From contig OX597814.1 in NCBI GenBank assembly GCA_951406725.2, forward strand, positions 193,502,001-193,566,000: a stretch of DNA of 64,000 bases, given 5' to 3'. The notes below the pieces were generated by a model. That model did no database searches. It had not been told where the DNA came from and was given only the letters and a program-made list of their open reading frames with translations. Position numbers and translations under genes: made by a program. This document shows positions 48-61,828 of the stretch, in pieces (the first letter of the stretch is position 1; the number at the start of each line of letters is the position of its first letter). Origin of the DNA: Octopus vulgaris (lineage: Eukaryota).

Positions 48-1370
48 GTATTAATTTGAAAGAGACAAGTTCCAGGGTCAATAATACTCCTAATCAAAGT
101 CGGATAAGTAATTGCATAAATACATATAGATAAATTAAGAAGTCCGAGCTGATGTGATAACAGTTCCCGATAATCCAAAAGAGAAGTCCTCAAATGAATT
201 CAATAAATAGAAAGAGTCTTACGGCCGTTTCCGAGAATGTGCGAAGAAGTGTGTAGGTAAGACCTTTTGAACTTCGGTAATCCACATATCCTCTATCAGA
301 GAATGTGTACGGATTTGGAATTTTTAAATAAAATCATAAAATTATTCGTGGGATTGTAAAAATATGCTTAAGAATATAGTTATTATATACAAATATAAAC
401 ATTTCATAAATTCCGGGATTCCATGTTGTTGGGCGAATGTTCATAGTGTAAGAAAAATTTCAAAAAAAAAAAAGATAAATAAATAAAACAAATTACGAGG
501 TTTATGAAATATGTGCTAATATAAACTAGGACGAGTTCAAAATTTGGTGGGATAAGATGATTAAAATGTATAGATAAAATAATGATTATACTGAGAAGAA
601 TTTAAAAGTAGAAAAGTACTTATGTCGACATGAAATCAAACACTCTGAGATCTTGTGTAAGAATAAAAAGAGTGGTTACCTAGTTACTTACACTTGGAAG
701 ACAATATGTAGAGTGTAGTCTTCAACTATCTAGAATAAAATCTACTGGGAGTTGTCGACTGTATTGTAGTTAATAGTGATAAATCTACTAAATTCTCAAT
801 ATACTGGAACCATATATCCAGCTTTATCTACACAAAAAGGTAGGGTGTAGGTTAGTAATAAGGGAATGCCTGATGGGAAAGGGGTGATAATTGGAAGAAA
901 GAAGGATAAGAAGGGCCATTTGGATTATTATGTTAAAGGGGCAGATAATGAAAAACCAAAGGGATAAGCAATATAAATTCAGAGAATAAGGGAGGTAGTA
1001 TATTATAACCTAGCAAATTTGTAATGTTAAAGCTAGAAAATTAAAATCAAGGCTAGAAGGCTAGAAATTAAATTCAAAATTTAATAACGGGATACTTTAA
1101 TGTATAAGAAAACATATATTAAAGCTTTTCATAAATATAGTGTATAGATCATGATAGACATATTCTCTAATGAATGTGTAACGGAATTAAATTATCAAAC
1201 AAATATAAACTTATAGTATACGTTAAACTAATATAAGAACTATTCGCTTCATTGCGGGTGGATAAATATAGGAAATCGTAAGAAATGGTATCCAATATAC
1301 GGGGTAGTAAAATTAGAGATATTTCAAAAGTATAAGGGAGTATGTTCAGATACAATATTTAATCAATATC
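48..1370 (-). mobile_element. AT-rich non-coding element with an HHR-like motif near its 3' end, probably a PLE 3' UTR
   Basis: Abuts a short (TA)n at 40-47 and carries an HHR-like motif at 216-303(-). The layout matches the PLE at 60167-61828. No coding remnant recognised. Bounded on the right by the Helitron at 1372. Confidence 0.4.
216..303 (-). ncRNA. Type-I hammerhead-like motif, variant core
   Basis: Minus strand reads tct-CTGATAGA-[long stem II]-G-GAAAC-GGCC-GTA-aga, with a palindromic stem III loop and a 3-bp stem I. Confidence 0.5.
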
Positions 1371-1580
1371 ATCTATATATATAAACTGAGGATGTGTGTG
1401 TGTGTGTGTGTGTGTGTGTGTGTGTGTGTGTGTGTGTGTGTGTGTATGTGTGTGTGTGTGTGTGCGTGTGTGTGTGTGTGTAAACCCTGCAGAACTTCTG
1501 AAGTTCGCAATTGATTTTCTCGAAACTGAGAACATACATTACTTATGTTCCAGAAATGGTTTTAGACTCTTAAAATTTTC

Positions 1581-1846
1581 CACATAATGAGTAATGGGGC
1601 TCCTGGGGGGCAGAAAACCCCCTTTCTTGGGGTACGTACGATTGCCCGCATGGTCCACGCATTGCTTCTGTCCAAACTGGAAAAACAGCTACTGAAATGA
1701 TATAAGTAGGCTGTATTAAATGGACGAACCGATGTAGACTTCAAACTGCAATGTAGACTTCAAACTAAGTGGTAGCAATAATAGCCGGTTCCCATAGTCC
1801 CATTATTGGAATGAGAACTGTTTGGAACGCACTATGTTTATAATGA
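1581..1846 (+). repeat. ~265-bp segment duplicated at 4398-4662
   Basis: Near-identical sequence CACATAATGAGTAATGGGGCTCC...CACTATGTTTATAATGA at both sites; this explains the twin ORFs 1562-1744 and 4366-4560. Confidence 0.9.
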
Positions 1847-2515
1847 AAAATATGCTAAAATATGTTAAATCCTGAGCAACTATTTTCTTTTAGCTTCAGT
1901 ATCAAAGTCTTCCTTCTAAGCATAGATGAAGCCCATACAAATATTCTTCAGCTATTGGTTACAAACCAAAATATTGCATGTACATTAACCTACTAATTTA
2001 TTGTGACTAAGGCCCAACCACGTTAGTGAGAGACAGTGTCCTTAACGCGACACTGCATGTCCGGACGCTACATGCAGAATTGTTTTCGTTTGGGAGCTGA
2101 GTTGTCCTCACAATGGTTGAATATTGTTTATCTGAAGGAATGCATGGTTGAGCCACGACTATTGATTCCCAACCACATCAGCAACCCAACGTCACACGAC
2201 CCAACCACGTTTGTTCGAGACTGTGTCCTTAATGTGACCTTGCGTACCCGGACGCTGCATGCAGAACTGTTTTCGTTTGGGAGCTGAGTTGTCCTCATAA
2301 TGGTCGCAAGTTGTTTACGCTAAGGAGTTGAGCCATGACTATTGATTCCAAACCGAAATATTACATGGCAGTGTTGTTTTCAAGCGCTTCCTTGCCATCC
2401 CAACCTTACCACGTCATTTCTTTCATGTAGATTTCTCTCATGTGGTGCTGTTAAGCGCGCCCACAGGCTTAGTTCATCACATAGATGTAGTTCTATATCT
2501 GCTGATTGTTCAGCG

Positions 2516-2734
2516 CAGTGCTTTTCAAACTTTTTGCTGGAGCGGAACCCCAAGGAAACATTCCACTGGCTCGGGGAACCCCTGTGCAATAATTTAATAG
2601 TCTTATGCACACATATCTGCACAGAAGAATTTAAAATTACTGCCGATTTTAGCAGTTTTGTAACTTCTTGCGGAACCCCTGGACTGTACTGGCGGAACCC
2701 TAAGGTTCCGAGGAACCCTGGTTGAAAACCACCG
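2516..2734. mobile_element. hAT (Charlie-like) MITE nested in the Helitron
   Basis: TIRs CAGTGCTTTTCAA / TTGAAAACCACCG, with a perfect 8-bp TSD GTTCAGCG at 2508-2515 and 2735-2742. Confidence 0.85.
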
Positions 2735-59088: not shown

Positions 59089-59291
59089 ATCTTGCATCTA
59101 TTTTCTTTCCTCCACCTCATTCTCTATTTTGTATCACATCTAAACTAACTATGACTTAACTTTCTTCTCACACCGTCTCTGATGAAGGGATATAATTAAT
59201 AAATATCCTGGAAACAGCTATAAGACCTATCTATAAATGTTCTAATAGCTACACAGTCTTGGTTTTTTTATCTTATTGCGCAAAAAATTCT
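59089..59291 (+). mobile_element. Mini-element M5 with HHR-like motif (59175-59226)
   Basis: gtct-CTGATGA-AG-GGATAT...ATATCC-TG-GAAAC-AGCT-ATA-agac; (TA)n on both sides. Confidence 0.6.
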
Positions 59292-59316
59292 TATATATAT
59301 ATATATATATATATAT

Positions 59317-59583
59317 AATTGCAGCGTGGGAGGTGTTTATAAGCCATTTAAGAAACACAAAAGCCGTTCGATTCACCCAACATTTAAGTTTAATTTGTCA
59401 AAATATTTTCGTAAAATATGTTCACTGACAAAGTCCGTGCTGCATCTCTGAGATGCAGCACGGACTTTGTCAGTGAACAGGTCGCGGATTTTATATTTTG
59501 ACAAATTAAACTTAAATGTTGGATAATCGAACGGCTTTTGTGTGTTTCTTAAATGGCTTATAAACACCTCCCACGCTGCAATT
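59317..59583. repeat. 267-bp fold-back element
   Basis: Perfect 30-bp inner arms around a 1-nt spacer (59449) and ~90-bp near-perfect outer arms. Confidence 0.9.
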
Positions 59584-60166
59584 GTTTTCGTTTCAGCACA
59601 CGATCTCAGATCAAATTACTTGCTATGCGAGTACATCTCCGTATATATATATATATATATATATATATATATATATATATATATATATATATATATATAT
59701 ATATATATTTATATATTTATGTATATATAAATATATACATACATACACATATATATGTATATATATATATTCATATATATATATATATATATATATAGAT
59801 AGATAGATAGATAGATAGATAGATAGATAGATAGATAGATAGATAGATAGATAGATATGTAAGCATATATATATTTGCTCACTTACAAGGTGAGGAAAAT
59901 TGTACGTACGCCGCTATATGTATATATAGATATTTAAAAACTGGAACAAAAACGTAATAGACGAGAATGAAACATCCGGACAGATAGACGATACAAAGGC
60001 GGACAGGAAAAAGAACCAAGGACTAGCCATTCGTGGTCTTCTCTCCTCAGTCAAGTTTCCATATTGTCCTTACAGTTTCGGGAAGTTACACTTGAGACTG
60101 TTCAAATCTGGTTGCCCCCAGATATATATATATATATATATATATATATATATATATATATATATA

Positions 60167-61828
60167 CGGTTAAGTAATTGAGAATCTAGTGAATTCTAAA
60201 GAATTCACATGAATATGGTCCTTAACTAGGATGCACCGGATATCTATATGGTGTTAGCCATACGACAAGTGGGGTGATTATAAATAGGAAAAAAGCAACA
60301 AGAATGGATTAAAATCTCGGTACGATCGTTTCGTACGAGGACATCTTTAATAAGCTACAAAAATGCAGTGAATACAGATGGCTCGTACTCGTCAGCCGAA
60401 AAAATATCAGAGAATTCCCAAACATCAAAAGGGGTAGATATAAAAGAGGTTGTAGGATTAACTGCATTGAAGAAAGTTCGATTCATGGAGATCTGATGAA
60501 AGGTTTTAAACCTATAGAATTTATGCATGTCTACATATAGCTCATATTGGATATTTGATCAAGTTGTATGAAGAAATTTTCGGATACAGACATGCAAAAT
60601 TTCTGAAAATCCGAGTAAGAGGCAAAGTGACTGCCACATCATGTAGAGGAAAGTCTGAGTAAAAACATAGTGACTGTCATGTCGTGTAGAAGAACAGATT
60701 GTTATTGAAATTAACAAGAATCGCAGATAAGTTCGATTTTTTTGGAGATCTGATGAAAAAGTCTTGAACTTACAAAATTTGTGTATGTCCTTATAGTTCG
60801 TAATCCAGTTTTGTGGAGGGATTTAAGGTACAATCATGCGAAAATATCAGGGAGTCCGAATGAGAAGCAAAAATGACAGCCTTATATTGTAGTGGTTCAG
60901 GTAGTTAATGAAATATTCAAGAATCACAGAAAGAGGAGGAAGGGGGTAGGAATTTAATCAGTTACTGCTATTTAAGCTGTCAAAGAGAAAGGAAAGGGGA
61001 AGCTAAGGGGATGGGCACAATTTGATACTAACAAAAAAGTCTAAGTTTGTTTGGAACAAATTCGAACTGAAGTCAACAATTTATTTCTTTATTCATAAAT
61101 GTTACTATTAATAGATTGTCAGGTTACAAAGAGGTCATTAGAAAGGAAAGAAAAATGGGGTTGTTTTTAAATGAAATTAAACTATTATATTAATATTATA
61201 CTAAACTATAAAACATACATAATGTTATTAAATGAAAATATTAAATTAAACAATTATATTATTATTATACTAAACTATAATACACTACACTATATTATAT
61301 TATATTATTTTGATAAATTATATCACATCACAATACACTATGATAGGTCTGGTATTAGCAGAAATTAATTTTAAAAATTTAAAAAAAAGAAATTAAGAGA
61401 ATTAACTAACTAAAATTTGTAATGGGATAAAAAATAGACTAAGAAATGGAGATAAAATTAATTTATTAATAATATGGTCCAATAGAAATAAATCAAATAA
61501 ATAATTTAAGTCAATAAGTATCAAATAGTACCATCAGAGCGAGAAAAAATTATAATCATATCTAGTTGGAACTTATCTTTCTAGTTAAATATATACTATG
61601 TAGGAGTGATATGTAAGTCAAAATTGAATTTTATGTAAAATGATTCCAGTATACAGTTATCAATTGAGATATGATTTAAAATATCATTTAAAATATTTAA
61701 GAGTCTTAAACCGAGCATGTATACAAGAGGTTCCAAGTTCAATTCTGCTGTTTAATTGAATTTCTCCATTATTTTTATACATTAGTATTTCAAATGCTTC
61801 CATGGAGCAAAGTTGGCAGCCTACTCTG
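60167..61828 (-). mobile_element. Heavily 5'-truncated Penelope-like element with a long 3' UTR
   Basis: 61684-61827 encodes CQLCSMEAFEIL...LNSRIELGTSCIH, like the CxLCxxE...LNxRxE...CxH C-terminus of PLE endonucleases. Canonical HHR 150 nt from the 3' end. (TA)n on both sides. Confidence 0.75.
60317..60399 (-). ncRNA. Type-I hammerhead ribozyme, canonical
   Basis: tcgg-CTGACGA-GTACGAG...CTCGTAC-GAAAC-GATC-GTA-ccga; all core bases and three stems are intact. Confidence 0.85.

Follow-up and report, generated by a model that had tools for sequence, protein, structure and literature searches.

Why does a single stretch of the Octopus vulgaris genome (64,000 nucleotides of contig OX597814.1, positions 193,502,001 to 193,566,000; hereafter the window) hold so many motifs that resemble type I hammerhead ribozymes (HHRs), and which elements carry them?

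Hammerhead motifs in the window

The window was searched with a strict descriptor of the minimal type I HHR, consisting of the core N3-Y4-G5-W6-N7-N8-A9 (3:8 paired, optional extra base), a stem II of at least 2 bp, GAAA, a palindromic stem III, UH, and a stem I of at least 3 bp. Ten sites matched, compared with a mean of 0.5 (sd 0.7, maximum 3) in 60 local dinucleotide shuffles, and the reversed window sequence gave no strict match. Eight further motifs with one or two defects (M3a, M3b, M4a, 15760, 53650, 57909, M5 and 216) were included through family membership or by-eye reading, which gives a total of 18, the approximate number put forward in a sequence-only reading of this DNA. The total takes in two motifs, 582 and 22629, that were absent from that text. 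The first is an A3-U8 match in AT-rich DNA (582 to 622, forward strand). It lies more than 750 nt from any TA tract and may be a chance match. The motif at 216 (220 to 299, reverse strand) is a degenerate, single-copy type I HHR with a long stem II, a CGGCCG palindrome and GUA, and fails the strict descriptor.

A looser scan that tolerated one defect separated the window from the shuffles less well than the strict one (17 versus 6.8 at a score of at least 4; 8 versus 0.6 at a score of at least 9). Only six sites carry the textbook core CUGANGA together with a short stem II, three of them among the 18. Rfam gave no hammerhead for the whole window among the matches listed (150 of 369), and searches of three small regions with E values up to 10 gave none either.

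The core boxes are in type I order around stems I and II (strict set of ten; the other eight have one or two defects). The stem III palindromes are CG, UA, CCGG, CACGUG, CGAUCG and CGGCCG, and are imperfect in M3, M5 and 15760. The canonical A6 and C3-G8 are not universal: U6 occurs in all three M1 copies, A3-U8 in the family of the PLE at 16 kb (16k family), and C4 in M2. U4C and U3-A8 are among the natural HHR variants already described (PMC3088659, PMC4209133). As a monomer, the HHR at 60395 to 60321 folded best (z −3.85), and the folds of M1c, M3 and 15760 showed no gain over shuffles. Judged by their sequence, the window motifs are minimal type I hammerheads.

Several candidates were rejected. 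Those at 28121 and 39300 are the 3′ end of an RLE-type LINE (one such end lies at 39220 to 39900), the region 59890 to 60121 is too degenerate, and the antisense matches at 36193 and 36511 were dismissed.

Motifs at the 3′ ends of Penelope-like elements

Three Penelope-like elements (PLEs) have left GIY-YIG ORF remnants in the window, and four motifs lie next to these. The first element (15650 to 16763, reverse strand) is 5′-truncated and comprises a thumb, a CX4CX2C linker, an EN remnant, a 3′ UTR and a TA end, with an A3-U8 HHR at 15760 to 15736. The second, also 5′-truncated (21800 to 22708, forward strand, start approximate), ends at (TAT)n; it contains a GIY-YIG ORF (22063 to 22431; PF01541, E 1.6e-5) and a U3-A8 HHR (22629 to 22659). 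The third is a classic PLE insertion between TA tracts (57704 to 59042, forward strand). An inverted pseudo-LTR (pLTR) with a tail of about 40 bp (57704 to 57977; HHR 57909 to 57884) is followed by a thumb-linker-EN remnant up to 58739 and a direct pLTR with a U3-G8 HHR (58874 to 58899), which is the EN+ PLE layout of direct and inverted pLTR with tail. The ORF remnants show the CX4CX2C linker and are 71% and 57% identical to P0002 and P0003, which are RT-plus-GIY-YIG proteins. All three elements have kept the C-terminal GIY-YIG ORF of an EN+ PLE and have lost the RT core to truncation.

A fifth motif (A3-U8 HHR 53650 to 53674) sits in an ORF-less 3′ stump of the 16k family (53612 to 53748, forward strand; z 37), whose match to the 16k PLE end begins only some 40 nt ahead of the core. 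The best-folding HHR (CUGACGA, CGAUCG, GUA) belongs to a repeat end at 60167 to 60470 on the reverse strand. Within the window, the sequence upstream of 60317, 53646 and 216 yielded no PLE ORF. The earlier assignment of HHRs to PLE 3′ ends holds for 15732 and 57878/58867, by their ORF remnants, and for 53646, as a stump of the 16k family. On sequence evidence, five motifs are in PLE 3′ ends (pLTRs), four by ORF remnants and 53646 as an ORF-less stump.

Short ORF-less repeats and their ends

The remaining repeats had been described as at least five unrelated ORF-less families of about 200 bp, M1 to M5. M1 is present as M1a (27669 to 27866, forward; HHR 27737 to 27764, CUGUGGA, A6U), which ends at (TATG)n, M1b (34525 to 34725, reverse; HHR 34654 to 34627, CUGUAGA) and M1c (36046 to 36254, forward; HHR 36126 to 36153, CUGUCGA), which has the same first base as M1a. 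Just upstream of M1c, a hairpin of about 88 bp (35894 to 35981, forward) has as its loop a degenerate M1/M2-type HHR (35927 to 35951), recognized by eye and outside the 18. M2a (13898 to 14101, reverse; HHR 14023 to 13997) has CCGACGA, a CG palindrome and GUU; M2b (54181 to 54393, reverse; HHR 54310 to 54284) has TA on both sides. M3a (6690 to 6870, reverse; 181 bp) also lies between TA tracts, has a 31-bp palindrome at its 5′ end, and carries an HHR (6767 to 6730) with CUGAAGA, a bulged stem II, a 7-nt near-palindromic stem III and GUU. M3b (9251 to 9447, reverse; HHR 9331 to 9294) shares both ends with M3a, and (TA)n separates it from a partial M3 copy (nt 12 to 85; 9482 to 9555, reverse) that starts at the palindrome centre. 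M4a (36301 to 36618, forward) has about 50 nt upstream of the core of a long-stem-II HHR (36353 to 36450) with the mutated triplet GCC. M4b (53916 to 54168, forward) is truncated 10 nt upstream of the core of an intact HHR (53926 to 54006; CUGAUGA, CACGUG, GUC) and is joined there to an 86-bp piece of an abundant repeat (53830 to 53915, forward), behind which TA follows in many contigs. M5 (59089 to 59291, forward; degenerate HHR 59179 to 59222) lies between TA tracts.

The longest stop-free stretch in these repeats is 32 to 77 codons, and they are indeed ORF-less. Their division into at least five unrelated families was overstated: M1 and M2 are homologous (z 11 to 19), the M4 copies measure 253 to 318 bp and differ in their 5′ ends, and M5 is a lone degenerate copy in the window. 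M1, M2 and M3, alone among the families, have common 5′ ends (two to three copies each in the window). M4 and 53646 look like ordinary 5′-truncated PLE ends. No mini-element matched the 3′ UTRs of the three local PLEs, which leaves the proposed mobilization by these PLEs conjectural, nor did any match the pLTR of an ORF-bearing PLE within the window.

The HHR base N7 varies freely in M1. Covariation in M1 and M2 together was seen in only one of nine pairs, a level reached by 47 of 500 shuffles. When the comparator loci described below were added, two of the three stem I pairs had two-sided changes (10 cells), and none of 500 shuffles scored as high; in this test the search pattern had already set stems II and III, and 6 of the 76 listed loci were picked by hand. 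A scan of ten copies for A and B boxes found no B box; its single A-like match is in M1b, on the opposite strand.

In metagenome contigs, the M1/M2 pattern matched at least 120 loci. Of those listed, 44 were left aside and 76 showed an HHR core; among these 76, 66 were distinct, 63 placed and 58 uncensored. The exact M1 pattern was found in no metagenome contig, and the M1/M2 pattern in no viral contig. At one listed locus (L007, from another host) tblastn detected an ORF, the flanks being short and the queries distant; here the stop codon of a PLE ORF is followed, 87 nt on, by an M2-type HHR, and beyond the HHR M1 and M2 share no sequence with this locus. Among the matches listed, most copies are short 5′-truncated pieces, mostly below 250 bp. 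Of the listed uncensored loci, 23/58 start within 20 nt of C3 and 13/58 start 60–100 nt upstream of it, like M1 and M2; the 3′ ends of the listed loci cluster near +95–100 and +150–157. Draws from the listed loci served as a truncation null, in which a pair fell within 7 nt in 7–12% and within 1 nt in 1.2% of draws, and a triple within 7 nt in 0.5–1.8%; the comparison involves two to three copies per family and a null from another host.

Association with TA microsatellites

A TA-type tract, defined as (TA)4+, (TATG)3+ or (TAT)5+, lies within 180 nt downstream of the cut in 17/18 motifs, compared with 21.7% of unmasked background positions, where the 18 motifs are partly non-independent and five cut positions are accurate to 1–4 nt. 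The earlier statement that the 3′ end on the HHR strand adjoins such tracts is thus confirmed; on the upstream side only 7/18 motifs have one. For 216 and both motifs of the 58k element the first downstream tract is only a (TA)4, and TA is absent from the 5′ side of M1a and M1c. M1b and M2a each interrupt a SINE copy at its internal (TA)n, and the SINE sequence continues on both sides, indicating that the target existed before the insertion. This supports the proposed targeting of microsatellites. Target site duplications are unreadable because the flanks are TA.

Abundance and joints of M2 in sequencing runs

The contig depth of M2 was 2.5–5.6 million up to 54380, with no decay from the 3′ end; such high abundance appears to hold for M2 only. 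Among the joints listed, head-to-tail ones from the M2 start to its 3′ part were seen in run X3 (54383 to 54204 and 54366 to 54167) and run X8 (54374 to 54205); these are three single contigs among 25,904 and 6,465 mapped, and two use the same start. One X19 contig (depth 545) extends 139 nt past the M2 start into other sequence. The ratio of M2 to the M4 HHR was 3037 and 365 in two runs guessed to be RNA, compared with 28 in X3, a ratio confounded by the guessed label and by the different organism label of X3; none of the runs listed for these sequences is catalogued as RNA. In X8 and X19 the M2 enrichment is RNA-like and the profile centre-peaked, which is a lead only. The raw DNA run X22 yielded just 5 reads of 12.9 million records, at odds with a high-copy repeat. 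No position with many molecule starts or ends was found, and contigs cannot show RNA ends. Among the listed M2 substitutions of at least 8%, those inside the HHR were C4 to U (27% of depth, X3), U17 to C (8%) and a stem I G-C to G-U (15%); these three are tolerated changes.

Discussion

We are fairly confident in the overall interpretation that five motifs belong to PLE pLTRs and that the other short ORF-less repeats are likely truncated or solo pLTRs of further Penelope families, probably inserted into pre-existing TA tracts by target-primed reverse transcription. Of the earlier proposal, the PLE origin and the pLTR-sized ORF-less copies are supported. Our verdict is a mixture, partly truncated stumps and partly fixed-length solo or non-autonomous units. 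That no autonomous parent of M1 to M5 was found in the window counts against this interpretation.

A simpler account, which is possible but clearly less probable, is that all short copies, including M1 to M3, are ordinary 5′-truncated PLE ends whose common starts reflect chance or truncation hot spots (hairpins, microhomology). M4 and 53646 are indeed truncations, the comparator copies are mostly short with 13/58 listed loci starting where M1 and M2 do, the X19 contig runs beyond the M2 start, and M3a and M3b are merely 2.5 kb apart. However, close 5′ ends are rare in the null and occur here in three families, the M2 depth does not decay from the 3′ end, and two head-to-tail joints have the same start.

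It is unlikely that M1 to M3 are true non-LTR retrozymes, which would be transcribed in tandem, cut by dimeric HHRs, circularized and re-inserted as monomers from the circle. The M2 joints, the unit of about 200 nt and the excess of M2 over M4 in the presumed RNA runs would fit, but in the window 0/7 M1–M3 copies lie in a complete tandem unit and their ends are not redundant, each joint is a single contig, and the ratio is confounded. The cores are minimal, carry A6U or U4C and frequently have GUU, whereas coral and mussel retrozyme HHRs are described as canonical (PMC7229834). SINE-like repeats of another LINE that make their own TA tails, the HHR resemblance being incidental, are very improbable: the genome is rich in microsatellite-bearing SINEs, an RLE-type LINE end is present and M1a and M1c lack 5′-side TA, but the descriptor excess, the free N7, the stem I covariation, the M2-type HHR behind a PLE ORF, the pre-existing TA targets and the absence of an A/B box pair on the HHR strand all speak against it.

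For truncated and solo pLTRs, the following course is likely. The GIY-YIG endonuclease would nick AT-rich DNA or (TA)n, as suggested by PAc biochemistry (PMC11167929); for M1b and M2a the target existed beforehand. Reverse transcription would then start internally, again by analogy with PAc, at a family-specific site about 40–180 nt downstream of the HHR; the 3′ ends observed are fixed. Synthesis would mostly stop early, giving stumps with variable 5′ ends, as seen for 53646, M4b and the comparator family, or, alternatively, an inverted pLTR with tail, as seen at 57704 to 59042. For M1, M2 and M3, we give about even chances to synthesis reaching a fixed point, most likely the 5′ terminus of a transcript that escaped cleavage and began at the pLTR boundary of a full PLE or a solo pLTR. 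With palindromic stems III, the HHRs would, judging from the literature, cleave only as dimers of 4–8 bp or with protein help. Since A6U and U4C cores would be slow, cleavage is maybe dispensable for copying.

More tentatively, and on balance doubtfully, M1 and M2 (and M3) might be self-propagating, very high-copy, SINE-like passengers of PLEs, in which a pLTR transcript of 200 nt, begun at a start site of its own, forms a discrete RNA and the HHR is kept mainly as a handle for PLE protein while its catalysis decays. Supposed signs of decay are A6U and the free N7 in M1, and U4C and GUU in M2. If so, these families would rank with the genome's major short repeats, filed as unclassified SINEs, and would provide a natural test of the need for hammerhead cutting in PLEs.

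Many repeats filed as 'unknown' or 'unclassified SINE' in such genomes may be PLE pLTR ends, recognizable by a relaxed HHR descriptor where Rfam misses them. The six core variants in this one window (C3-G8, U3-G8, U3-A8, A3-U8, U4C and A6U), all in successful families, make a cheap panel on whether cleavage matters for PLE spread. The unusual cores A6U and A3-U8 are a minor lead. Among the papers listed by our literature searches, none reported either in the hammerhead-core sense, nor such elements in octopus or other cephalopods. Lunse et al. (2017) reportedly described some 150,000 small HHR variants linked to PLEs and able to cleave as dimers, and their list may already include A6U or A3-U8. 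Likewise, the families themselves may already have names in Repbase, Dfam or an octopus repeat library.

In O. vulgaris, PLEs account for 6.83% of the genome and fall into 190 families (PMC13282606, supplement), which is enough to explain the motif density in the window. According to Cervera and de la Pena (2014, PMC4209133), minimal HHRs in metazoan PLE pLTRs number thousands per genome, in many families; most are single motifs, called 'probably related to truncated PLEs', and some form opposite-strand pairs. The window motifs share with them the type I topology, the extra base after A9, G10.1-C11.1, the palindromic stem III and the U3-A8 variant. The A6U and A3-U8 cores and the stem II inserts of 50–60 nt do not appear in the available part of that account, which is also silent on constant 5′ ends and TA targets.

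Animal non-LTR retrozymes are similar in being short HHR units that code for no protein, are sister to PLE pLTRs and include dispersed monomers, whose share ranges from 0 to 1 by family (PMC7229834; Li, Clavereau and Pollet 2026, 10.64898/2026.07.22.740005). However, their definition calls for circular RNA and for tandems in which every unit has an HHR, whereas here just three rare joints were seen. The 2026 survey covers 35 genomes, molluscs not among them. The Poseidon element PAc (Frangieh 2024, PMC11167929) is likewise similar, with AT-rich cleavage, an internal RT start downstream of the HHR and a tail between two start sites. The PAc data are in vitro and from another clade, and its HHR needs protein and is dispensable for insertion.

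The window elements also resemble EN+ PLEs, which have pLTRs of 190–220 bp, a 30–40 bp tail and solo pLTRs, and in which a CX2-5CxxC linker is tied to microsatellite targeting with a (TA)n bias (Arkhipova 2013, PMC3846280; Craig 2021, PMC8557442). Non-autonomous derivatives are known as well, such as MRC1 among the Chlamys elements, and the M3 palindrome resembles the 18–38 bp palindromes at rotifer pLTR 5′ ends (PMC3846280). Rotifer solo pLTRs are few and ascribed to recombination, whereas M2 appears very abundant here. Arrangements of this kind have been described before (Cervera 2014; Arkhipova 2013; Craig 2021; Li 2026).

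Hammerhead motifs in the window

We searched for hammerhead ribozymes (HHRs) with a descriptor modelled on the minimal type I HHR (PMC4209133). U6 and C4 were additionally allowed after inspection of M1 and M2, two of the five groups of short ORF-less HHR-bearing repeats (M1 to M5, copies lettered), and the controls were scanned under the same rule. Ten sites were found in the window, compared to 0.5 ± 0.7 across 60 local shuffles and none in the reversed sequence, so the cluster of HHR-like motifs proposed in the sequence-only reading is real. A further 8 motifs carry one or two defects, giving a total of 18. 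A textbook core search of the window returned few matches, and no hammerhead was present among the Rfam matches listed for the window, nor in three small regions.

M4 and M5 have the core CUGAUGA, M3 has CUGAAGA, M2 has CCGACGA, and M1 has CUGUNGA, with N7 being G, A and C in its three copies. The cores at 15760 and 53650 carry A3-U8, that at 58874 U3-G8, and that at 22629 U3-A8. A6C was described as reducing activity and U4C as tolerated in vivo (PMC3088659; PMC7151607); an A6U core was not found in our literature search, which did not cover Lunse 2017. When 11 motifs were folded as monomers, only 60317, an HHR-bearing repeat end (z -3.85), and M4b (z -2.48) folded clearly better than shuffles. 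Motifs that depend on a partner would be expected to behave in this way.

Two more segments resemble these motifs. An 88-bp hairpin at 35894-35981 (+), with a degenerate hammerhead of the M1/M2 type as its loop, lies 65 nt upstream of M1c and shares one pair of flanking TA tracts with it; it may be a separate HHR unit that stands in tandem to M1c. At 59890-60121 (-), a 232-bp segment between TA tracts has an M1/M2-like T-rich layout and a CUGAGGA box, with no intact GAAA, and may represent a sixth, decayed family.

TA tracts as probable insertion target

A TA-type tract is located at most 180 nt downstream of 17 of the 18 motifs, compared to 21.7% of the background, and upstream of only 7; the claimed enrichment beside TA tracts was thus borne out. 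M1b and M2a each lie within a copy of one abundant SINE and split its internal (TA)n, the SINE halves resuming on both sides, which indicates that the (TA)n tract was the target of insertion. Craig et al. 2021 (PMC8557442) tied (TA)n bias to a CX2-5CxxC linker, and a linker of this type is present in the ORFs of two truncated local Penelope-like elements (PLEs), 16k and 58k.

The window is animal DNA with a GC content of 35.8% and is microsatellite-dense (137 TRF rows). Its SINE-like repeats fall into three families of 21, 13 and 9 intervals, the last count including the two M3 intervals, and may be of the octopus type. A head-to-head pair of SINE halves (34733-34944; 90-nt arms, 78%) lies beside the M1b 5' junction, and 184-bp-period tandem repeats occur within one SINE family at 9917-10367 and 27051-27417. 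The TA tract of M5 is directly adjoined by a MITE-like, nearly perfect palindrome of 267 bp (59317-59583; arms of 46, 30 and 30 nt at 98-100%). The 3' end of a LINE with a restriction-like endonuclease, which we take to be Dong/R4-like, terminates at a microsatellite (39220-39900, -), and a second, short 3' copy is found at 28055-28121 (-). Fragments at 37907-38368 (+), 61900-62300 (-) and 52700-53250 were read by eye as Tc1/mariner transposase-like; the first had no Pfam match. A U1 snRNA match at 5295-5454 (+) scored 83.3 bits (gathering score 69.5); its 5' end is damaged, and it is either a gene or a pseudogene.

Penelope-like element ends and truncated copies

GIY-YIG remnants of three truncated local PLEs (16k, 22k and 58k) sit 135-261 nt upstream of HHRs. 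The 58k protein shares 71% and 57% identity with two RT plus GIY-YIG proteins. The region 57704-59042 shows a textbook PLE arrangement, in which an inverted pseudo-LTR (pLTR) with a 40-bp tail is followed by a truncated ORF and then by a direct pLTR. In the 137-bp ORF-less stump at 53646, similarity to the 16k PLE starts about 40 nt upstream of the core, indicating that truncation alone yields a "mini-element". M4b retains 10 nt upstream of its core and M4a about 50 nt; since the letters at a joint in contig set X3 resemble the upstream part of M4a in a by-eye match, that part belongs to the M4 family. A search for an ORF upstream of 60317 found none, and the same holds for 216, a degenerate single-copy HHR motif. 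A diverged direct repeat without an ORF (60474-60895; 68%, spacing of about 255 bp) lies upstream of the 60317 hammerhead.

Contig depth over two segments of about 80 bp, 53830-53915 and 54090-54168, was 4-10 times that over the hammerhead part of M4, and several contigs link the two segments on opposite strands. Together this points to many very short 3'-end insertions.

Relationship of M1 and M2 to a metagenomic PLE family

M1 and M2 had been regarded as unrelated, a view contradicted by their alignment over about 170 bp (z 11-19). None of the other cross-family comparisons in the window exceeded z 5 except for one marginal value of 5.3, and no match linked the mini-elements to local PLE UTRs.

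The M1/M2 HHR pattern was found at at least 120 metagenome loci. In the 76 of these with a core, CCGACGA (32) and CUGACGA (30) occurred. In one locus (L007), a PLE ORF whose linker is of the CX4CX2C type stops 87 nt upstream of the HHR core. Stem I is changed on both sides among M1, M2 and the metagenome loci; beyond the HHR, the loci showed no relationship to M1/M2. The PLE family of these host-associated metagenomes has the HHR subtype of M1/M2, with CC about as frequent as CU at core positions 3-4. Its loci do not end in TA tracts, a short TA within 400 nt being present in 3 of the 120 listed.

The 58 uncensored loci of this family differ in how far from the core their 5' ends lie: 23 start less than about 20 nt away, 13 at a distance of 60-100 nt and 19 more than 100 nt away. 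The 3' ends form two clusters about 55 nt apart. Short ORF-less HHR pieces are thus what a PLE family normally produces. M1 opens with two adjacent in-frame stop codons (27669-27680 and 36046-36057; a variant form in M1b). We speculate that its start, about 70-80 nt before the core, is the end of a parental ORF (compare the 87 nt in L007).

Shared 5' ends and abundance

M1a and M1c have an identical first base and M1b starts at most 7 nt later, homology between M2a and M2b begins at one common base, and the 31-bp terminal palindrome of M3a recurs in M3b, mismatch included. Such agreement was matched by 0.5-1.8% (M1), 7-12% (M2) and 1.2% (M3) of draws from the metagenomic family, samples being tiny and this null coming from another host. 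The 5' ends disagree in M4 and 16k, the two other multi-copy families.

M2 is plainly abundant. Contigs matching 53835-54460 numbered 25,904, 6,465 and 482 in three sequencing-run sets (X3, X8 and X19), with only 5 reads in a raw DNA run (X22); summed contig depth does not equal copy number. M2 depth showed no decay from the 3' end. It dropped at 54381-54401, which is also the end of the copy present in the window, and the family may therefore continue upstream. One X19 contig extends 139 nt beyond the M2 start, and three of the listed M2 joints are head-to-tail.

Possible mechanism and comparison with known systems

According to PMC11167929, the PAc protein cuts AT-rich DNA, reverse transcription begins within the RNA downstream of the HHR, the template is uncleaved RNA, and the HHR cleaves only in the presence of protein. 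By analogy, internal initiation of this type would produce the fixed 3' ends of the window elements, early termination would leave stumps, and synthesis reaching the transcript start at the pLTR boundary would give fixed 200-bp units, with the RNA coming from either a full element or a solo copy. Tandem arrays and terminal redundancy would be expected from a route through circles; both are rare or absent here.

The minimal type I HHR was defined by an additional base following A9 and by a palindromic stem III, with U3-A8 as a variant form, and thousands of single copies per genome, in many families, were tied to truncated PLEs in 2014 (PMC4209133). Non-autonomous PLE derivatives (Craig 2021, PMC8557442) and HHR monomers that are sister to pLTRs (Li et al. 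2026, 10.64898/2026.07.22.740005) have also been reported. Rotifer pLTRs measure 190-220 bp, start with palindromes of 18-38 bp and occur as solo copies (PMC3846280). In the repeat annotation of O. vulgaris (PMC13282606), PLEs make up 190 families, and 893 families are unclassified SINEs with recent activity; its supplement gave 0 matches to "hammerhead". Judged by sequence, the window elements probably work like PLE pLTR ends, and they differ from retrozymes, for which a tandem arrangement is the criterion. The window motifs are real and well above chance; their kind is already known, and the window contributes a new set of members. Among these, genome-wide attention is merited by M1/M2, a high-copy group that combines fixed ends and weakened cores.
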